Shown: positions 1-30,485 of the stretch, one piece after another | Layout of the letters: each line of letters opens with the position of its first letter | Numbering within the stretch: position 1 is the stretch's first letter | Program-made: the position numbers and the translations under genes | Assembly (NCBI GenBank): GCA_900320455.1 | Contig: ONSK01000070.1 | Span: forward strand, 1-42,383 | DNA from: an uncultured Erysipelotrichaceae bacterium | GTDB lineage: Bacteria; Bacillota_I; Bacilli_A; Erysipelotrichales; Erysipelotrichaceae | Direction of reading: 5' to 3' | DNA length: 42,383 nt | The notes under the pieces: model-generated | Told to the model about the DNA's origin: nothing | The model's database searches: none | Seen by the model: the letters and a program-made list of their open reading frames with translations, nothing else

Positions 1-512
1 CCGCCGCGTCCTCTCAGACCGGAAGCCTTCATGACATCGATGACTTCCTGCGGCTGCATCTCTGTCAGCGCCTTGCCGAGTCCTTCATAACCGCCCATGG
101 CGATATATTCCGTAATGTCTTCCGGATTGATCTTGCCGCAGTTTCTCAGAGCGATTCTCTGTTGCTTCTCATAGAACTTGATCTTGTTGATGTCGAGAAT
201 CTTTTCCTTTGTTTCAAGGTCTTCATCACTGAGCTGCAGTTCAGTGACAACACGTCCCTTGTAAATGTGTTCGGCAACGATTCTTTCAACATCTTCTACT
301 TTTACATGGCTGTAGAATACCTGGTCAGGATAAACCGCAACGATCGGTCCCTTCTGGCAGAGACCGAAGCAGCCGGTTCTGACAACGTTGACTTCCTTGT
401 CGAGACCGAGCTTTGCGAGCTCTTCGTTGAATTTATCGAAGATCAGGTTGGAATTGCTGGCAGTACAGCCTGTACCTGCGCAGCAAAGTATATTTGTACG
501 ATAGTTGGGCAT
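1..512 (-). CDS. hydB: NADH-binding (NuoF-like) subunit of electron-bifurcating [FeFe]-hydrogenase, HydB/HndC; 5' part only, runs off the window
   Basis: Not in the ORF track; translated by hand from ATG at 512: MPNYRTNILCCAGTGCTAS...VRTGCFGLCQKGPIV...FYEKQQRIALRNCGKINPEDITEYIAMGGY...MKASGLRGRG. This is a thioredoxin-like 2Fe-2S N-domain followed by the NuoF SGLRGRG(G) FMN motif. The ATG overlaps the TGA of the upstream gene. Confidence 0.93.
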   Translation of the reverse strand, partial: MPNYRTNILCCAGTGCTASNSNLIFDKFNEELAKLGLDKEVNVVRTGCFGLCQKGPIVAVYPDQVFYSHVKVEDVERIVAEHIYKGRVVTELQLSDEDLETKEKILDINKIKFYEKQQRIALRNCGKINPEDITEYIAMGGYEGLGKALTEMQPQEVIDVMKASGLRGRG

Positions 513-892
513 CAGATATTACCCTGCTCTTTCCTTGCAGCTTCTACTGTGTATTCCTCAACAACCTTACCCTGTCCGATATGCTGTTCAAGAATCTTAG
601 CTGCTTTTTCAGGGTCTACATGTACATATGTCGTATGACCTTCATTCTTGTCGAATACTTCAACAATCGGTTCATAGACGCACATACCGATGCATCCTGT
701 CTGTGTCACAACGCAGTTGTAATCCTTCTGGGCAGTTTCCTCTACAAGACGGTTCAGCACAGGTCTTGCGCCGGCAGCGATTCCGCATGTAGCCATACCG
801 ACAACAACACGATAATCTTTTCCGCCTTCACGCATCTCAACCTTTTTGAGTGCCGCTTCACGCATCTTTTTGAGATCTTCCAAGCTCTTCAT
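512..892 (-). CDS. hydD: Thioredoxin-like [2Fe-2S] ferredoxin subunit of bifurcating hydrogenase (HydD/HndB)
   Basis: VVVGMATCGIAAGA...QTGCIGMCVYEPIVEV motif; lies directly before hydB. Confidence 0.9.
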   Translation of the reverse strand: MKSLEDLKKMREAALKKVEMREGGKDYRVVVGMATCGIAAGARPVLNRLVEETAQKDYNCVVTQTGCIGMCVYEPIVEVFDKNEGHTTYVHVDPEKAAKILEQHIGQGKVVEEYTVEAARKEQGNI

Positions 893-1443
893 AGTGTGTC
901 CTCCTTAGCCTGTTCAATTCCCTGATTGATATATTCTTTAATCCACAGCAGAATCTCCGGTTCCATCAGGCTGACTCCGTCAAGTTCCTTTCTGACTTCC
1001 ATGGATGTAAAGACAAACTGATTTGAATCTGTAGTGTATTCAAGAGTGTAATCGATATCCGGATTCGCCTGGATCGTTTCCATGGAAATCTCACCGAGAT
1101 CTCCAAGCGGCGGCGTATCGATACATTCCTTTTCAACTTCGGCTGTGACAGTTGTGCCTTTGCCGACTTCACTGTCCAGCGAGAAGCTTCCGTTGCATGT
1201 TTCAGTCAGGCCTTTCATAAATGCCAGACCCATACCGATCTTTCTGGTGGTGCGTGATGTTGTGAAGGGATCAGCAGCTTTCTTTGCCATCTCTTCATCC
1301 ATACCGCATCCATCATCGATGATGGTCATGCGGATCACGTTGTCCAGCCAGCTGTCGTAGATTTTAAGTGTCAGTGTACCTGCACCTGCCTTGACGCTGT
1401 TCATCAGGATTTCCAGCAGATGCATCGCAAGATCTTCCATCAT
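889..1443 (-). CDS. Stand-alone HATPase_c (histidine-kinase-like ATPase) protein, hydrogenase-operon associated
   Basis: N box EILMNSVKAG, G1 DDGCGM, F box DPFTTS, G2 GMGLAF and terminal GKGTTV; no HisKA or sensor domain; 4-bp overlaps with both neighbours. Confidence 0.85.
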   Translation of the reverse strand: MMEDLAMHLLEILMNSVKAGAGTLTLKIYDSWLDNVIRMTIIDDGCGMDEEMAKKAADPFTTSRTTRKIGMGLAFMKGLTETCNGSFSLDSEVGKGTTVTAEVEKECIDTPPLGDLGEISMETIQANPDIDYTLEYTTDSNQFVFTSMEVRKELDGVSLMEPEILLWIKEYINQGIEQAKEDTL

Positions 1444-2144
1444 ATGATGTCATCTCCCCACAGTTTTCTGAACACGCTGTCACGCATGAAGTTGTCAGCC
1501 TCCGACATGTCAATCAGCCGGTGGGCATCTGAATCAATGAACCAGTATGTATCCTCTTCCTTGATCCAGGGATGCGTTTCCAGAACGCGCAGTTTCTGTT
1601 CTTCGGATTTCACTTCAAGTCCGTCATATGCCAGTCCCATCGGAATAAATCCGAGCTGGGTGGTCACGCTGTTCTGTCTGTCCAGAACATGCGCCAGAAT
1701 GACCTTTCCTCCATAGGCATGAATGGCATCAACCGTCTCCTCCAGTGTCGCATCCAGCGATACAAGAAGAAGATTGTCTTCAATTCCGATGACTTCATCC
1801 TGTCCGTTCATCAGCAGCTGGTTTCCGAAGAACGCGGGATCATTTTTGATTCCCGGCATTCTCTCATCGATCCACGTCTGGAACGTCTGGCTGTCTTCAA
1901 GCTTCCGGAACAGTCCGAGCACATGAACTTCTTCAGATGTCTGGATTTCCGTGCCGTACAGAAGCCTGATACCGCAGTTAACGGCAGCTTCATGCACTGC
2001 CGGCAGCTGGCGGGTGGAATTGTGATCCGTGACCGCGATGATCTCGAGGCCCTTGATCAGTGCCATGTTGCATATGTTGTTCGGGGTCATCTCGTCTTCC
2101 GCACAAGGCGAGAGACAGGAATGCATATGAAGATCGTAAAACAT
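1440..2144 (-). CDS. PHP-domain phosphoesterase
   Basis: DLHMHSCLS, AVTDHN, EEVH, LAH and SDAH metal-binding motifs. Confidence 0.9.
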   Translation of the reverse strand: MFYDLHMHSCLSPCAEDEMTPNNICNMALIKGLEIIAVTDHNSTRQLPAVHEAAVNCGIRLLYGTEIQTSEEVHVLGLFRKLEDSQTFQTWIDERMPGIKNDPAFFGNQLLMNGQDEVIGIEDNLLLVSLDATLEETVDAIHAYGGKVILAHVLDRQNSVTTQLGFIPMGLAYDGLEVKSEEQKLRVLETHPWIKEEDTYWFIDSDAHRLIDMSEADNFMRDSVFRKLWGDDII

Positions 2145-2476
2145 TAAAGACCGAGAGCGTTCAGCTTCTGGGCTGTCTCATAGACCGGAAGTTTGCTCTC
2201 AATCAGAACGAGCTGTTCTTCTTCGGCCTTCTGGATGAGATCCTCGCTGACCATTGCGCCATCGGCAATGATCACGCATGAGAACTCACGAAGCAGCGCG
2301 ACAGCGATGACATTGTTGTGGACCTGTACGGTGATCCATGCCTGTCCCGGCTCGCCGCGTCCCATGACCCAGCTGAGAAGATCACCGCAGTAAACACCGG
2401 TAACCTCCGCCTCTGTTTCAAGATTCCTGGTAGCAAGACTGAAACCTGTTTTTTCAATAAGTTCACTGATTTTCAT
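2144..2476 (-). CDS. DRTGG-domain protein
   Basis: GVYCGDLLSWVM...AWITVQVHNNVIAVA is typical of the DRTGG/HPr-kinase N-terminal-like proteins of hydrogenase clusters. Confidence 0.85.
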   Translation of the reverse strand: MKISELIEKTGFSLATRNLETEAEVTGVYCGDLLSWVMGRGEPGQAWITVQVHNNVIAVALLREFSCVIIADGAMVSEDLIQKAEEEQLVLIESKLPVYETAQKLNALGL

Positions 2477-3659
2477 TTGATTTCTCCTTCAGAGCCGCGA
2501 GGACCCTGCAGTCATCAATCGTTTTTTCACCGTTGACGATCGCTTCCGCCATGATTCTGCATGTCTGCATGCCGCAGGCACTGCAATCATAGCCCGGCAG
2601 CATCTCCAGCTGTTTATTGACATTCGAGAAGAACTTTGTCCTCTCAAGGAATGTTCTGGTATCCTTGTTGACCTTGATCAGCTGATCGACATAGACATCA
2701 TCCGCATCCAGCTTTGCGCTCTGCTTGGACTTGGATCCGGTCAGAGCATCAATGTTGTTCTGCATGAGGAAGCTGTTTCCCCATAGCATATGTCCGCCGA
2801 TGCATCCGTTGAAGCACGGATACAGGATCAGAAGCCTGAATGTGTTCAGGAGTCCGAACTCGGCCATATCCAGAACAGAACATACCTTGTCAAAACCGTC
2901 AGCGATCAGATAATCATCATCCTTGACGATTCTGACCGGATTGCACATCTGCAGTCCCTTCTTCGAGAAGATGACTTCATCCCTGCCCTGATGCATGTTC
3001 TTCCTGATCAGCGGGAAGATATCCGCGAGGGCCAGGGAATGATCGCATTCGAATTCCATGTGCTGGTACGGATATTTCGCGATGGAAAGCTTCGCTTCGC
3101 ATTCGCAGAGATTGAAGATACCGACGTTTTTGCCTTCCAGTCTCTTGCGGATCTGCCTGGCTGCGATTTCGGATTCATAGTTGATCGGAAGCAGCGAATC
3201 CAGAAGGCCCTGGTATTTGCTGACGATCAGCCTGTTGATAACCGGACAGAATGACGAGATATATGTCATATCATCGCTTGATCCTGCCAGCAGCTGCGCC
3301 TCCTTGAGGGCAACGCCGCTGTATTCGGTGATATCAACAACTTCATCAAATCCGAGCATGCGGATCGCGTGGAAGAGATCTTCCGCTTCCTCGAGAGAGG
3401 AACAGTGGGAAATCAGCGCTCCCGGGACCATGCATACGGTATATTCATAGTTCTCAATATCCGCGAGTGTGCTGCCGTGTGCGAGCAGTCCGCGGTTATG
3501 ACAGGAACGGATGCAGTTGCCGCAGTTGATGCAGCGGTTGTCATCGACAACGATCCTGTTTTTGGACGACATTCTCAGCGCGCTGGTCGGGCACGCCTTG
3601 ATGCATTTCATGCATCTGACGCAGTGTTCAAGGGTATACGTTACAACACTGCCGTTCAT
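2463..3659 (-). CDS. Putative sensory/regulatory [FeFe]-hydrogenase-like protein (group D-like) with N-terminal 2x[4Fe-4S] and C-terminal FeS domain
   Basis: CVRCMKCIKACP and CINCGNCIRSC ferredoxin motifs; divergent H-cluster motifs SSFCP, LCECEAK and PCFNGCIGG; C-terminal LPGYDCSACGMQTC...C. Confidence 0.85.
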   Translation of the reverse strand: MNGSVVTYTLEHCVRCMKCIKACPTSALRMSSKNRIVVDDNRCINCGNCIRSCHNRGLLAHGSTLADIENYEYTVCMVPGALISHCSSLEEAEDLFHAIRMLGFDEVVDITEYSGVALKEAQLLAGSSDDMTYISSFCPVINRLIVSKYQGLLDSLLPINYESEIAARQIRKRLEGKNVGIFNLCECEAKLSIAKYPYQHMEFECDHSLALADIFPLIRKNMHQGRDEVIFSKKGLQMCNPVRIVKDDDYLIADGFDKVCSVLDMAEFGLLNTFRLLILYPCFNGCIGGHMLWGNSFLMQNNIDALTGSKSKQSAKLDADDVYVDQLIKVNKDTRTFLERTKFFSNVNKQLEMLPGYDCSACGMQTCRIMAEAIVNGEKTIDDCRVLAALKEKSNENQ

Positions 3660-4087
3660 GATTCGGGGACCTGGAATGTCAGCGTGAGCGTCGTTCCATC
3701 CTTCCCTGTCTTGATGTCAAAGTGATCAGCCACACGCATGATATTGGGAATTCCCATACCTGCGCCGAAGCCCATTGCCCTCGCTTTTTCGTTTGCCGTG
3801 CTGAAACCGGGTGTCATCGCCTTCTCCAGGTCGGGAATGCCGGGTCCCGGATCGGCGAATACCAGACGGATCGTGCCGTCGTCATCAACATCCATCGTCA
3901 CATCGCCGCCATAGGCATGAATCAGCATGTTGATTTCCGATTCGTAGCTGGCAACAGCGATCTTTCTGAGCACTTTCGGGCTGATGCCGATGGCATTCAG
4001 AGACTGTTTGATGTCGCTGCTTACCATACCGGCGCTGGCATAATCATCACGTTCGACTTTGTATTCCTTATGCAGCACGTTTGCCAT
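3656..4087 (-). CDS. RsbT-like anti-sigma factor / Ser-Thr kinase (HATPase_c)
   Basis: IAVASYESEINMLIHAYGG, DPGPGIPD, GFST and GFGAGMGIPNI motifs. Start reassigned to ATG 4087 (MANVLHKEY) because the 4195 start in the ORF track overlaps the upstream gene heavily. Confidence 0.88.
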   Translation of the reverse strand: MANVLHKEYKVERDDYASAGMVSSDIKQSLNAIGISPKVLRKIAVASYESEINMLIHAYGGDVTMDVDDDGTIRLVFADPGPGIPDLEKAMTPGFSTANEKARAMGFGAGMGIPNIMRVADHFDIKTGKDGTTLTLTFQVPES

Positions 4088-4442
4088 GAATACTATCCAA
4101 CCCTTTCCCATACAGGATGCCGCAGGCTTCATACATCGTATAATCGGTGCATACAGCGCAGATTCCCATCCTGTTCGCCATCGCTCTTGTTTCATCGTCC
4201 AGATATTTCGACCTTACAAAGACAATGAACTGCAGATCGAGCATTTCAGCTGTCCGCAGGGTCTGCGCGTTCGCAAGGCCGGTGATCAGTATTGTTTTTT
4301 CCGGTGCTGACTGAATCATCAGCAGCGCATCGCTCATAAGATCTGTCGCAAACGCAACCTCATAATCACGCGACTGGTTTTCTTCCGTCCAGCATGCGAT
4401 CGGAGCTGCTTTCAGTAATTCAGCGACTTCACGTACAAGCAT
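4068..4442 (-). CDS. DRTGG-domain protein
   Basis: AFATDLMSDAL...ILITGLANAQTLRTAEMLD...TMYEACGILY. Confidence 0.85.
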   Translation of the reverse strand: MLVREVAELLKAAPIACWTEENQSRDYEVAFATDLMSDALLMIQSAPEKTILITGLANAQTLRTAEMLDLQFIVFVRSKYLDDETRAMANRMGICAVCTDYTMYEACGILYGKGLDSIHGKRAA

Positions 4443-4446
4443 GCTG

Positions 4447-4950
4447 TTATGCCCTCAGAGCAGCATTCTTTTCTTCGGCAATGATCTGCTTCAGTTCTGT
4501 CAGAAGCTTGTTGTTATCAGTAGCCGCACCGATAACCTTGCCATCAACGACTGCAACCGGTGCAAGACCGCATGCACCAAGGCATCTTGTGGCATCAAGT
4601 GAGAAAAGACCATCCGCACTTGTCCCGTTGACAGGTGCACCTGTCAGCTCGATTGTCTGGTCAATGAGCTTCTGTCCGCCCTTGACATAGCAGGCTGTGC
4701 CGAGGCACACATTGATGACATGCTTTCCCTTCGGCTCTGTTGTAAACTGCGCGTAGAACATAACAACGCCGTATACTTCAGCGACGCTGCTGCCGCATGC
4801 CTCAGCGATTTTTTCCATCGCTTCGAAAGGAACGTAGCCGAGTTCGTTCTGTACGTCATGAAGCATGACGATGCAGGGTCCCGGCTCACCTTTGTGCTTG
4901 GCAACAATCTCTTCAATTTTGCTGACTGCAGCCGGATTTAACTTTTCCAT
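4447..4950 (-). CDS. hydC: NuoE-like [2Fe-2S] subunit of bifurcating hydrogenase (HydC/HndA)
   Basis: EVYGVVMFYAQF...GKHVINVCLGTACYVKG...RCLGACGLAPV. Confidence 0.93.
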   Translation of the reverse strand: MEKLNPAAVSKIEEIVAKHKGEPGPCIVMLHDVQNELGYVPFEAMEKIAEACGSSVAEVYGVVMFYAQFTTEPKGKHVINVCLGTACYVKGGQKLIDQTIELTGAPVNGTSADGLFSLDATRCLGACGLAPVAVVDGKVIGAATDNNKLLTELKQIIAEEKNAALRA

Positions 4951-5684
4951 CCTGTTTCCTCCTCTGTTAATTTATCAAGCATCTTATCAAACAGATGATC
5001 GATGCACTGTGTGATCAGAATCATGATGATCGTCCAGGCAAATATGCCTGCGGTATTCAGGGTGATTCTGCTGTAGGCAAGCTGTCTGCCGATGCCGGCA
5101 CCGGCGGATCCGAGGATCTCAGCCATGACGCCGACCTTGAATCCCATCGATAATGCCGTCTTTCCTGTCCTGAGCATTTCCGGGATCAGCTGGGGAATGA
5201 GTTTCATTCTCAGCCTTGCCGCAAATGTTTCAGCGTACACCGCTTCCGCCTGCCTGAGGGAAAGCGGCTCATCATCCAGCGTATTCAGAAATCCGTTGAC
5301 AAACATCGGGAACAGGATCATGAAGATCACAGCTGTCACTGCGCCTTCCGAGCCAAGCCATACCAGGGCAATAATGATATAGCTGATATTCGGAATCGTC
5401 TTTGCCAGCGAAAGAACCGGTTCAATATAATTCCTGAATCGCACCGATTCATTGCACAGCAGACTGACAGCGAGCGCCGTCACCAGTGACAATGCAGTTC
5501 CCGCGATCACGCGGAGAAGCGTTCTGAATACTGAACCATAGAAGACAGGTTCAGCAAACAGCTGCACCAGACAGATCAATGTCTGATGCGGGTAAGGAAT
5601 GAGTATGTCATTGCCGGCATATGCGGCGGCCGATCCCCACAGCAGGATAAGCACCATACATGTAAGCAGATATTCCTTTTTCAC
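4938..5684 (-). CDS. ABC transporter permease, NitT/TauT (SsuC/TauC-like) family
   Basis: Multiple hydrophobic segments; KTIPNIS, degenerate EAA loop and FKVGVMAEILG...GIG; GTG start preceded by GAAGGTG; overlaps hydC by 13 bp. Confidence 0.88.
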   Translation of the reverse strand: MKKEYLLTCMVLILLWGSAAAYAGNDILIPYPHQTLICLVQLFAEPVFYGSVFRTLLRVIAGTALSLVTALAVSLLCNESVRFRNYIEPVLSLAKTIPNISYIIIALVWLGSEGAVTAVIFMILFPMFVNGFLNTLDDEPLSLRQAEAVYAETFAARLRMKLIPQLIPEMLRTGKTALSMGFKVGVMAEILGSAGAGIGRQLAYSRITLNTAGIFAWTIIMILITQCIDHLFDKMLDKLTEEETGWKS

Positions 5685-5707
5685 GACAAAAACACCTTCC
5701 CGGCAGT

Positions 5708-5759
5708 ATTATACCATAATGAATATTCTCATCATATCTTTTTGACAACATTTTCACGA
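5708..5759 (-). promoter_or_regulatory. Extended -10 promoter (TGgTATAAT) for the permease-hydrogenase operon, with an upstream Rex-like operator
   Basis: TATAAT at 5713-5708 preceded by TGG; imperfect 7-4-7 palindrome TTGACAA-CATT-TTCACGA at 5742-5759. Confidence 0.55.
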
Positions 5760-5768
5760 GCCCAATAT

Positions 5769-5794
5769 AAAAAGAACCGGTTAAAAACCGGTTC
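5769..5794 (-). terminator. Intrinsic terminator after the ABC substrate-binding gene
   Basis: Minus strand GAACCGGTT-TTT-AACCGGTTC followed by TTTTT. Confidence 0.8.
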
Positions 5795-5804
5795 CAGGCG
5801 ATGG

Positions 5805-6740
5805 TTATTCAGCGAAAGCGCTTTCGATTCCAGTAACTCCGAATACTTCCATGAAAGATGCAATTGCATCCTTGCAGTCAGCGGCTTTTGTGATTCTGAC
5901 GTTCATGCGGTCATAGCACTTGCCGACGATCTGCGCGCTCGGTACGCCGTAGAATTCAGCACCCTTCTTTTCGATGTCAGCGATCAGCTGGGAAGGATCA
6001 TCCATCTTGACGCCGGAAGCGTAATCGGACATTTCTTTCAGCATTGCGGCATAGACATCTTTCTTCTCTTCATATGTTGCGCTGTTGACGAACAGAGCAG
6101 CCATCGGGAAGCCTTCTCCGCCCCACTTTTCCTGTACGGAAGAGATGACCTTGAGTTCCTTGCCGTTTTCCTTTGCCTTGGCAATCGCGGCTGTTACTGC
6201 CGGCTCAGCCAGCAGACCAGCATCAGCGTCACCCTTGATCAGAACAGGAATGACTTCATCAGCTGCGTTGTAAGCCGGAAGCAGATCAGCTTCGAGATCA
6301 GCGTAAGCCTTCTTGAAGACAAGACCCGGAACGGATGTTTCACCGAAATAAGCAACCTTGTGTCCGGCAGACAGCGCGTCATCGCTGTTACCAACGATAT
6401 ACAGATTTCCCCAGTCAACGACAGCAAGCAGCCTGTAGCCTGTCTTTCCTTTGGAAGCGAGGTTCACGCCGAGGTTTGTCGGAGCGACGATGACGTCATA
6501 TTCCGCATCCGGAGCGACAAACGCTGCCTGAAGATCCTGGGCGCCGTTTAGCATGATCTTCACATCGTTCTTTTCACTGTTCACGATCGGGATCAGTGAG
6601 AGAGCAGGTGCTCCTGCAGGGCTTGCAATCTTCAGTCCTTCAACTGCAGCGGCAGGTGTTTCTTCCTTCTTGCCGGAATCCTGTCCTGCGCATCCGGCAA
6701 GCATCAGAAGTGCAAGGGATGCAGTAAGTAATTTCTTCAT
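5805..6740 (-). CDS. ABC transporter substrate-binding lipoprotein, NitT/TauT (SsuA/NMT1-like) family
   Basis: Lipobox LAGC after MKKLLTASLALLM; SPAGAPALS, VAPTN and GLLAEPAVT; start at ATG 6740 with SD GGAGG at 6755-6751. Confidence 0.88.
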   Translation of the reverse strand: MKKLLTASLALLMLAGCAGQDSGKKEETPAAAVEGLKIASPAGAPALSLIPIVNSEKNDVKIMLNGAQDLQAAFVAPDAEYDVIVAPTNLGVNLASKGKTGYRLLAVVDWGNLYIVGNSDDALSAGHKVAYFGETSVPGLVFKKAYADLEADLLPAYNAADEVIPVLIKGDADAGLLAEPAVTAAIAKAKENGKELKVISSVQEKWGGEGFPMAALFVNSATYEEKKDVYAAMLKEMSDYASGVKMDDPSQLIADIEKKGAEFYGVPSAQIVGKCYDRMNVRITKAADCKDAIASFMEVFGVTGIESAFAE

Positions 6741-6768
6741 TCTATAATTTCCTCCTGGCACCTTACAG

Positions 6769-6872
6769 AAAAAAGTCTCCGTACAAAAGACAGAGACTTT
6801 CTGATTGCATATACTACACAGAATGTTCTGTCCCTTCCCGTTCAGAGAACTCTTCTCAGTCAGATGACAGAA
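6769..6872 (-). ncRNA. Candidate riboswitch/attenuator (ZMP/ZTP-like architecture) ending in an intrinsic terminator before the binding-protein RBS
   Basis: P1 UUCUGUC(A)UCU/AGGGACAGAA; GACUGAGAA junction; P2 GUUC-UCU-GAAC; 3' module AGA-AA-GUCUC-UG-UCU overlapping the terminator GUCUCUGU/ACGGAGAC-U6. Confidence 0.55.
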
Positions 6873-6875
6873 ATC

Positions 6876-6904
6876 AGTATACTCTTGATTGCTTCAGATA
6901 TCCA
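6876..6904 (-). promoter_or_regulatory. Putative sigmaA promoter for the leader RNA and ABC binding protein
   Basis: TGGATA (6904-6899), 17-nt spacer, TATACT (6881-6876); predicted start near 6868-6870, at the 5' edge of P1. Confidence 0.5.
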
Positions 6905-6910
6905 GCAATA

Positions 6911-8674
6911 TTATTCAGCATTTTTCTTGGATGCGATTTCATCCAGCATCGCAGCCAGGAATTCATCGAGGGTCATCTTGACAGCCTCTTTTTTGCCATA
7001 GCGTCTGACAGTTACGCTGCGCTCAGCGATCTCGCCGTCGCCGACAACGATTTCCACCGGAATCTTGTTTGTCTGCGCTTCACGGATCCTGTATCCGAGC
7101 TTTTCGTTTCTCGCGTCAAGCTCAGCTCTGATGCCTCTGCTCTTGAGCAGACCGACAACTTCCTCAGCGTATGCGCCATGGGCTTCCGGAGAAACCGGAA
7201 TCACGACCATCTGGCGCGGTGAGAGCCACAGCGGCAGATTGCCCTTTGTTTCCTCAAGCAGGAATGCGATGAAGCGGTCAATGGAACCGAGGATTGCACG
7301 GTGAATGACAACCGGACGCGGCTTGGAACCGTCTTTGTCAACATACTCAAGCTCGAATCTTTCCGGCAGCTGATAGTCAAGCTGAATTGTGCTCAGTGTG
7401 ACATCATGGCCGAGAGCGCTTCTTACCTGAACGTCGATCTTCGGTCCGTAGAACGCTGCTTCGCCGATTGCCTCATAGAACGGTACACCCATTTCCTTCA
7501 GCACTTCTCTCAGCTCAGCTTCGCTTCTTGTCCAGAGATCATCATTTCCGAAGTACTTCTCACTGTTTTCCGGATCACGCAGTGAGAGACGGAAGGAATA
7601 GTTCTCAAAGCCGAAGTCCTTGTAGACATCGAGAATCAGCGCTGTGACGTTCTTGATTTCCTGCGCGATCTGATCAGGACGGCAGAAGATATGAGAGTCA
7701 TTCTGCGTGAATGCGCGGGAACGCTCGATACCGGTCAGTGCGCCGCCTGCCTCGAAACGGAAGTCATCGGCGATCTCGGCAATGCGCACCGGCAGATCAC
7801 GATAGGAATGCAGCGTGCTGCGGAACATGATCATGTGTTCCGGGCAGTTCATCGGTCTCAGGCAGTATTCGTCATTGTCACGTTCCATGATTGGGAACAT
7901 GTCATCCTTGTAGTGAGCAAGATGGCCGGAGATCTTGTACAGCTTCGTGCTGACGACAACCGGTGTCTTGACATGAACATATCCCTGGGCAAGTTCCTTG
8001 TCCATGATATAGTCAGACAGCGCTCTTCTCATCTGCAGACCGTTCGGCAGCCACATCGGCAGACCGCTTCCGACTGTCTCGGAGAACATGAATACCTGCA
8101 TCTCCTTGCCGAGCTTTCTGTGATCTCTCATCTTGGCATCTTCAAGATCCGCAAGATGGGCATCCAGCTCTTCCTGTGTAGGCAGGCAGACACCGTAGAT
8201 TCTCTGCAGAACCTTGTTGTTCCTGTCGCCCTTCCAGTACGCGCCGGAATGCTTCAGAAGCTTGAAGAAACGGCACATCTTCGTATTGTCCACATGGGGA
8301 CCGCGGCAGAGATCCGTGAAATCACCCTGTGTATACATGGAGATGTTTGTGCCTTCCGGCATACGTTCGATCAAATCGACCTTGTACGGGTCATCCTTGA
8401 ACTGTTCCAGTGCTTCTTCCTTTGTGATCTCATGACGGACGATCTTCTTGGCGTCCTTGGCGCACTTCTTCATCTCTTTTTCGATCTTGGCAAGATCCTC
8501 GTCACGGATGACATCATCACCGAGGTCAATGTCGTAGTAGAATCCTTCTTCAACAACCGGACCTACCCAGAACTTCGCCTGCGGATACAGATGCTTGACA
8601 GCCTGGGCCATCAGATGAGCACAGCTGTGGTTCAGCGTATTCAGCTCTTCGTTTTCTTTGAAATTGATCATCAT
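6911..8674 (-). CDS. thrS: Threonyl-tRNA synthetase (short form without N-terminal TGS domain)
   Basis: LNHSCAH editing motif, DLCRGPH, RDHRKLG, LRPMNCP, FRFE, AAFYGPKID, IHRAILGSIDRF and an anticodon-binding domain; the start may be the second ATG at 8671. Confidence 0.98.
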   Translation of the reverse strand: MMINFKENEELNTLNHSCAHLMAQAVKHLYPQAKFWVGPVVEEGFYYDIDLGDDVIRDEDLAKIEKEMKKCAKDAKKIVRHEITKEEALEQFKDDPYKVDLIERMPEGTNISMYTQGDFTDLCRGPHVDNTKMCRFFKLLKHSGAYWKGDRNNKVLQRIYGVCLPTQEELDAHLADLEDAKMRDHRKLGKEMQVFMFSETVGSGLPMWLPNGLQMRRALSDYIMDKELAQGYVHVKTPVVVSTKLYKISGHLAHYKDDMFPIMERDNDEYCLRPMNCPEHMIMFRSTLHSYRDLPVRIAEIADDFRFEAGGALTGIERSRAFTQNDSHIFCRPDQIAQEIKNVTALILDVYKDFGFENYSFRLSLRDPENSEKYFGNDDLWTRSEAELREVLKEMGVPFYEAIGEAAFYGPKIDVQVRSALGHDVTLSTIQLDYQLPERFELEYVDKDGSKPRPVVIHRAILGSIDRFIAFLLEETKGNLPLWLSPRQMVVIPVSPEAHGAYAEEVVGLLKSRGIRAELDARNEKLGYRIREAQTNKIPVEIVVGDGEIAERSVTVRRYGKKEAVKMTLDEFLAAMLDEIASKKNAE

Positions 8675-30411: not shown

Positions 30412-30485
30412 CGTCGTCGAAGAGACTCGAACTCTTGACCGTCCGCTTAGAAGGCGGGTGCTCTATCCAACTGAGCTACGACGAC
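30412..30485 (-). tRNA. tRNA-Arg (anticodon UCU), CCA not encoded
   Basis: GTCGTCG-TA-GCTC-AGTTGGATA-GAGC-A-CCCGC-CTTCTAA-GCGGA-CGGTC-AAGAG-TTCGAGT-CTCTT-CGACGAC-G folds into a 74-nt cloverleaf. Confidence 0.97.

Follow-up and report, generated by a model that had tools for sequence, protein, structure and literature searches.

Results

The window, a 42,383-nt stretch of DNA from an uncultured Erysipelotrichaceae bacterium, carries on its minus strand a leader that follows thrS (8674-6911) and lies ahead of a lipoprotein gene (6740-5805). The upstream thrS gene has its own T-box leader (8908-8708, minus strand), identified with Rfam together with a tRNA gene (30412-30485, minus strand); both are ordinary. 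A sigma-70-type promoter-like site, TGGATA-17-TATACT, had been proposed in a first-pass annotation of this DNA. It is present on the minus strand at 6904-6899 (-35) and 6881-6876 (-10), placing the predicted +1 near 6868. Three promoter-like sites of such type were found by the scan against 0.7 expected, and a -10-like hexamer with comparable spacing occurs in many orthologous leaders. The intrinsic terminator and U tract claimed by the same annotation fold at 6803-6768 (minus strand, -15.8 kcal/mol) and are absent from the list of a simple terminator scanner. This terminator is predicted to stop thrS read-through as well. A Shine-Dalgarno site (6751-6756, minus strand) precedes the ATG at 6740. 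The region 6738-6875 folded better than 200 of 200 shuffled sequences (z = -4.35). RNA contigs from one study, which cannot show starts and may contain DNA, include pieces ending at 6798-6827; a contig from a second study, again possibly containing DNA, ends at 6785. One RNA contig that may likewise contain DNA covers 6701-6935, from thrS into the lipoprotein gene. A related strain (run X15) showed 37 differences over 1.7 kb and zero within 6748-6991.

The lipoprotein, P0001 (5805-6740, minus strand, 311 aa), is a substrate-binding protein of NMT1/SsuA/TauA fold, which bears out the earlier assignment of the regulated gene to an importer binding protein. Foldseek with its AlphaFold model (pLDDT 93.9) returned BDI_1369 (3hn0) as the closest solved structure, then PqqT (9b1u), TauA, SsuA and ThiY (3ix1), with E-values from 1e-17 to 1e-11. 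All of these share the fold of P0001, and PqqT illustrates that an NMT1/SsuA-type fold is able to carry an intact cofactor. At 13-19% identity, however, the ligand is not transferable, and the window operon differs in having no ATPase gene. The closest named homologue of P0001 is from Solobacterium sp. (78% identity). An ABC permease gene (PF00528; 4938-5684, minus strand) lies downstream with no ATPase gene adjacent. Among 53 long orthologous metagenome loci, the binding protein and permease (4938-6740 in the window) were accompanied by an ATPase match in two, and the window genome offered no clear candidate for an orphan ATPase partner. A co-directional hydrogenase-type cluster (3-4950, minus strand) encodes NuoE/HndA-like, kinase-like ATPase, DRTGG, Fe-S/Fe_hyd_lg_C, PHP and 2Fe-2S thioredoxin proteins. 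It exits the contig inside a NuoF-like gene (labelled by eye); in relatives the catalytic subunit is encoded just downstream.

Orthologous leaders share a pseudo-two-fold hairpin of 32 nt (6833-6864, minus strand), supported by covariation and minimum free energy (MFE) folding, in which two repeats pair with one another. In the window copy, P1 (6864-6862/6835-6833) is followed by tandem GA/GA, and P2 (6859-6856/6841-6838, with one A-A mismatch) by a second tandem GA/GA. P3 (6853-6851/6846-6844) then closes a variable 4-nt loop (6850-6847), while an extension pairs 6868-6866 with 6832-6830, all on the minus strand. The family consensus has an outer 3-bp helix, tandem GA/RA, a middle helix of 4 bp (3 in some members), tandem RA/GA, an inner 3-bp helix and a loop that varies. 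A gapless alignment of 16 sequences had 89.4% pairing, a level that 0 of 500 shuffles attained, and showed compensatory changes at 5 of 10 pairs. A model-aligned set of 52 sequences reached 91.7% pairing, with 9 of 10 pairs compensatory and slid controls at 24.5-48.2%; these figures lean upward, as the alignment was fitted to the structure and its seeds were picked by pattern. The four loop A's were kept in 51-52 of the 52 aligned sequences. When the leading 41-49 nt downstream of +1 are folded, the symmetric hairpin is the MFE structure (-10.3 kcal/mol). A single significant copy is present in the window genome, and its retention in orthologous leaders makes the element more than a chance occurrence. 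The hairpin heads many binding-protein operons, often ahead of a TM1266 gene that precedes the binding-protein gene. Tandem or multiple copies were seen at G485:C80:3643-3729, at L068:380-424 and in G517 and G509, including a second copy directly before hydG inside an operon. Separately, the 11 nt at the 5' end of the transcript have a complement in the terminator loop of L013, L015, L017 and L018, which may allow an additional long-range pairing.

Rfam searches over the window, at gathering and E-value level, returned the T-box, the tRNA and three chance matches, with nothing relevant in 6600-7050 at E≤10. Ten homologous loci gave 0 matches to Rfam 15 at E≤0.5, and the leader lacks a match to the PyrR binding site (RF00515). 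The earlier statement that this is not a catalogued class therefore holds. No description of the hairpin family was found among the papers listed by literature searches; a prior non-Rfam listing, as in a motif-discovery supplement, is possible. On comparative sequence evidence, the leader is a member of a conserved, uncatalogued and widespread RNA family.

The 3' strand of the hairpin can also pair with the 5' arm of the terminator in a predicted antiterminator (6785-6836, minus strand, -18.2 kcal/mol). Since this strand doubles as the antiterminator arm, stabilising the hairpin would turn the genes OFF. The first-pass annotation had proposed an ON switch through overlap with the terminator arm, which is at odds with the overlap seen between the conserved hairpin and the antiterminator arm. 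With the 3' end of the RNA placed at 6785-6772, the antiterminated fold was favoured by 0.8-4.3 kcal/mol over hairpin-keeping folds, a calculated margin that a bound protein or ligand could reverse. Computationally, from folding and leader-specific complementarity, anti-antiterminator, antiterminator and terminator are mutually exclusive in the window leader. Of 59 homologous leaders, 50 had a called terminator. In 39 of these 50 the leader's own terminator arm paired with the hairpin strand better than the median foreign arm; the window leader was counted as a miss, its antiterminator having been taken as the terminator. Mean pairing energies were -10.8 kcal/mol for own and -8.1 kcal/mol for foreign arms (permutation p<1/5000, uncorrected for kinship). 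Among nine leaders without a called terminator, the start codon lies 12-24 nt beyond the hairpin in six (L152, L153, L155, L161, L165, L166) or, on another count, seven, with six counted at 12-14 nt; this spacing fits translational repression. A longer RNA from 6915, as produced by thrS read-through, folds as hairpin plus terminator (-42.0 kcal/mol), so the long P1 drawn in the first-pass annotation may stop thrS read-through.

The range of the family was examined by pattern and model searches. An exact-pattern scan of GTDB gave 18 matches, 12 of them in leaders; six (L050, L056, L057, L062, L064, L065) lay inside ORFs and were dropped as chance. The leader matches precede TM1266 and/or the binding protein, nifH-like operons, and TM1266-hydG (Gorillibacterium, Ruminiclostridium). 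A pattern with the spacer one base longer, applied to 301 genomes, gave 11 matches, of which 2 were real, and missed the window itself. A first model (R1) found matches in 21 of 61 relatives and 31 of 141 Clostridia, and a second (R2) in 45 of 141 Clostridia at E≤0.01. The hairpin precedes TM1266, hydG, hydE or aspA-like genes at 26 of the 29 listed Clostridia loci; the three others (R1 loci L172, L174, L175) lay inside ORFs and were dropped. Aspartate ammonia-lyase-like genes are headed by the motif at the Clostridia loci L150 and L151. In Erysipelotrichales and Clostridia the family stands at the head of operons for [FeFe]-hydrogenase maturation (TM1266, hydE/F/G) and of several operons for importers.

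As read from their gene content, the motif-led operons of the relatives form a graded series. One type is TM1266-hydE-hydG-hydF. Another comprises nifH/D/K-like genes, a FecCD-type importer, hydF, TM1266 and hydE, without hydG (L133, L134, L135, L137, L138, L142, L144). Further types hold a FecCD importer with hydF, a FecCD importer alone, or, as in the window, an NMT1-type importer with hydrogenase subunits. In the HydG-less genomes G481, G511 and G538 the motif precedes TM1266 and a 171-aa hydrophobic protein inside hydrogenase clusters; this protein had no Pfam or NCBIfam match. At L207-L209, L211 and L212 a hydrophobic protein of 171-176 aa, unmatched in Pfam and NCBIfam, follows TM1266 behind the motif; by eye it appears ECF S-component-like. 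The 171-176 aa proteins behind TM1266 may represent a third importer type. Among 53 long metagenome loci, 28 had no hydrogenase-related neighbour.

In two HydG-less genomes, the loci L177 (G048:C17) and L178 (G046:C1) hold one run of hydA, a nifH-like gene, two nifD/K-like pairs, HypF, HypD, HypE, hydF and hydE; at L177 HypF, HypD and HypE all score over the NCBIfam cut-off. This gene content suggests that the CN/CO iron unit may be made without HydG, by a route using maturases borrowed from the [NiFe] system; no description of such a route was found in the literature searched. G056, with hydF and hydE-like matches, is possibly similar.

TM1266 (TIGR03959, PF21699; 57 bits to PDB 2nzc) is the gene that travels with the motif and is annotated only as a putative regulator; the literature searched described neither RNA binding by it nor an RNA target for it. 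In a phylum draw made up mostly of small genomes, TM1266 was found in 4 of 99. Among Clostridia with R2 matches at E≤1e-3 it was encoded in 35 of 37, compared with 94 of 140 overall, and 59 of the 94 TM1266-positive genomes lacked an R2 match at that threshold. Binding-protein carriers were taken as the 27 genomes with a match at E<1e-30 out of 61 relatives, 33 of which matched the protein at all. A motif match was obtained for 14 of the 16 carriers with TM1266 and for 0 of the 11 without it; three of the 14 matches are weak, two of them at a hydEG operon rather than the importer. Weak matches were found partly by inspecting TM1266 loci, which favours the correlation, and the genomes compared are kin, so that p-values throughout overstate significance. 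All 10 motif matches in 80 metagenome loci fell within the 15 TM1266 loci and none in the other 65. An importer ABC ATPase (G016; L137:7723-8811, minus strand) ends in a TM1266-like domain, as expected if TM1266 senses the cargo. The fusion resembles the ligand-sensing tails of other ABC ATPases. The window genome has TM1266 as well, in trans, as a lone gene that lies on a different contig and is not preceded by the motif.

Several observations fit this association less closely. The TM1266 protein of the window genome is not basic (8 K/R and 10 D/E, net charge -2). The motif occurs without detectable TM1266 in G500, G537 and G013. Within HydG-positive Clostridia the TM1266 association was not significant (30/77 vs 2/13, p=0.13). 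When the sequences upstream of hydG were searched in 13 Clostridia without TM1266, one clear motif match (G500) and one partial match were obtained.

Maturase genes are sparse in this group. Matches to the [FeFe] catalytic model were found in 49 of the 61 relatives, to HydF in 20 and to HydG in 6; 30 of the 49 hydrogenase-positive relatives lacked HydF and 43 lacked HydG. The binding protein occurs mostly in hydrogenase-positive genomes that lack HydF: 3 of 27 carriers encode HydF. Across the 61 relatives (3/24/17/17) Fisher's test gave p=0.002, and restriction to the 49 with hydrogenase gave p=0.001, figures drawn from genomes that are kin. The direction was unchanged inside and outside the genus. 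Two of the three genomes with both proteins also encode HydG (G051, G054), and six hydrogenase-less genomes of other genera encode neither binding protein nor HydF. The 30 hydrogenase-positive, HydF-less genomes divide into 20 with the binding protein, two with a motif-led FecCD importer and eight with neither; ten hydrogenase-positive relatives thus lack both HydF and the binding protein. HydG, HydE and HydF gave no match in the window genome, which is 81% complete and whose assembly is missing the catalytic subunit.

Discussion

Very probably, the leader is a regulatory RNA that belongs to the hydrogenase-maturation regulon and follows OFF logic, as its fold, its antiterminator overlap and its gene context, all apparent from sequence comparison, indicate. 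Folding predicts that RNA from +1 first forms the symmetric hairpin, which by default refolds into the antiterminator and leaves the genes ON. A TM1266 oligomer loaded with cofactor or precursor would bind and hold the two-fold symmetric hairpin, allowing the terminator to form and switching the genes OFF. Where the hairpin abuts the hydG ribosome site, TM1266 binding would block translation. We favour TM1266 as the reader of the hairpin, on balance, from its co-occurrence with the motif, and infer protein-RNA binding by TM1266 in the window leader.

The binding protein and permease would supply the di-iron cofactor or a precursor to a cell that appears unable to make its own. According to a review, synthetic [2Fe]H mimics supplied from outside can mature the apo-[FeFe]-hydrogenase of living cells, their entry route being unknown (PMC10369191). 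Together with the distribution of the binding protein and the lack of maturase matches in the 81%-complete window genome, this makes import of the cofactor, or of one of its late precursors, the best guess. An H-cluster-related cargo is plausible and held tentatively; iron, a sulfur compound or another maturation input is possible instead. An importer for H-cluster material was not described in the literature searched. The reading as a whole, an attenuator likely read by TM1266 and controlling a probable importer of H-cluster material, is given an even chance, its reader and cargo being the deduced parts.

Several other explanations were weighed against this attenuator. The first-pass annotation had seen an ON switch, either a divergent ZMP/ZTP riboswitch or a variant with another ligand; that reading is almost certainly wrong. 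All the sequence modules it quoted are present (minus strand, 6872-6768), including the UGACUG word, in an order superficially like that class. The class features tested were taken from 10.1101/521930. The ZMP/ZTP (pfl) riboswitch (RF01750) is, like the window leader, a short structured Firmicute leader ahead of an intrinsic terminator. Relative to that class, the window leader has no P1-J1/2-P2 plus P3 pseudoknot, has OFF instead of ON logic and precedes unrelated genes. RF01750 gave no match in 6600-7050 at E≤10; its four sub-threshold matches in the genome do not include the leader. Covariation was found in the orthologous leaders, in the symmetric hairpin and not in the annotated P1-outer and P2, which on 16 homologues were 47.9% paired, a level reached by 101 of 500 shuffles, with a covariation of 0.145 against 0.146 in the shuffles. 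Separately, P1-outer (53.8%) and P2 (40.6%) paired at shuffle level. The RNA had been said to start at P1, most of whose 5' arm lies upstream of the predicted +1. What was read as the GUUC arm of P2 is the apical loop of the symmetric hairpin, which is hypervariable. By eye, P3 and the pseudoknot are broken in the two closest orthologues (L006, L007), and inspection of the 3' regions of other members found no shared module of this type. The motif contexts inspected held TM1266, hydE/F/G, aspA-like, nif-like and importer genes and no purine or folate genes. Closer to the truth were that annotation's own caveats, a GAGAA/UUCUC hairpin and pairing of GGGACAGA with the terminator arm. A mere thrS terminator without regulatory role is extremely unlikely: thrS is upstream of many orthologues and the read-through RNA does fold as hairpin plus terminator, but the hairpin occurs without upstream thrS in L013, L015, L017, L028 and all Clostridia loci, and is missing from thrS-adjacent orthologues without TM1266 (L012, L016). 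The annotation was right to see a conserved, structured regulatory leader close to the promoter and equipped with a terminator, and not merely the end of thrS. Nor is the repeat likely to be a DNA operator with an incidental terminator. The motif can be read as two 14-nt direct repeats near the promoter, just after +1, but their central four bases covary as complements, not copies, the antiterminator complementarity is leader-specific, and copies also occur inside operons directly before hydG, so that we hold this to be very improbable.

Greater weight attaches to the nature of the reader. The hairpin could itself be a riboswitch aptamer for iron, an Fe-CO/CN species or a maturation metabolite, with OFF logic and TM1266 merely co-regulated. 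Both transcriptional and translational platforms occur, a single leader is common to importers and biosynthetic genes as in riboswitch regulons, and three genomes carry the motif without TM1266. Against this, the element spans only ~32 nt and is a simple stem in which few bases are invariant; its two-fold symmetry would suit a symmetric protein oligomer; and it was not found in any of the 11 binding-protein genomes without TM1266. We regard an aptamer as unlikely. The attenuator might alternatively be read by a protein other than TM1266, for instance a general RNA-binding protein, a maturase or a subunit of apo-hydrogenase, as the exceptions to TM1266 co-occurrence and the net negative charge of TM1266 would allow. 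This is quite unlikely, given that the motif is kept where HydE/F/G are absent and TM1266 is present (the window genome; G481, G511, G538). A search of the window genome for ANTAR protein (PF03861) was empty, though its control was also empty.

With TM1266 as preferred reader, the hairpin leader is predicted to work like a PyrR-type attenuator, outside any Rfam family. PyrR of the Bacillus pyr operon, TRAP and HutP act by protein-dependent leader attenuation. The PyrR attenuator (RF00515), like TRAP and HutP, has the promoter-proximal anti-antiterminator/antiterminator/terminator logic of the window leader. In the PyrR type as in the hairpin family, the likely reader is small and operon-encoded, and both biosynthesis and uptake genes are controlled. 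The hairpin family differs from PyrR in its fold, with two tandem GA/RA loops in two-fold symmetry and no Rfam match, in its ACT/NikR-C-like candidate reader and in its hydrogenase regulon. ANTAR-bound dual-hairpin leaders have two repeats, each with a hexaloop bearing A1 and G4, and the window repeats can be read likewise. In the window leader, unlike those, the repeats pair in one hairpin, G4 covaries with its partner and the logic is OFF. Covariation in the 52-sequence alignment supports one hairpin, not two. Two separate ANTAR-like hairpins, or a k-loop, were rejected, as the two repeats covary with each other.

The hairpin gives [FeFe]-hydrogenase maturation a first candidate for a regulatory element, and it offers a candidate function for TM1266, whose structure is solved and whose role is unassigned. 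Its regulon hints at an explanation for hydrogenase-positive genomes without HydF or HydG. In such genomes one switch is found ahead of transporter genes of three kinds and of a nitrogenase-like module, and the binding protein makes the import idea directly testable. More broadly, many gut and rumen Firmicutes that encode [FeFe]-hydrogenases but no maturases could import the finished di-iron cofactor or a late precursor through dedicated transporters, with TM1266 as a cofactor-sensing, RNA-binding attenuator that acts on the symmetric hairpin to shut down synthesis and uptake, and P0001 as a receptor for organometallic Fe-CO/CN species; we put this forward as speculation that is rather unlikely to hold in full. 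If it were true, microbes would cross-feed the hydrogenase cofactor, and with H-cluster material imported, hydrogen production in the rumen and gut would depend on that cross-feeding.
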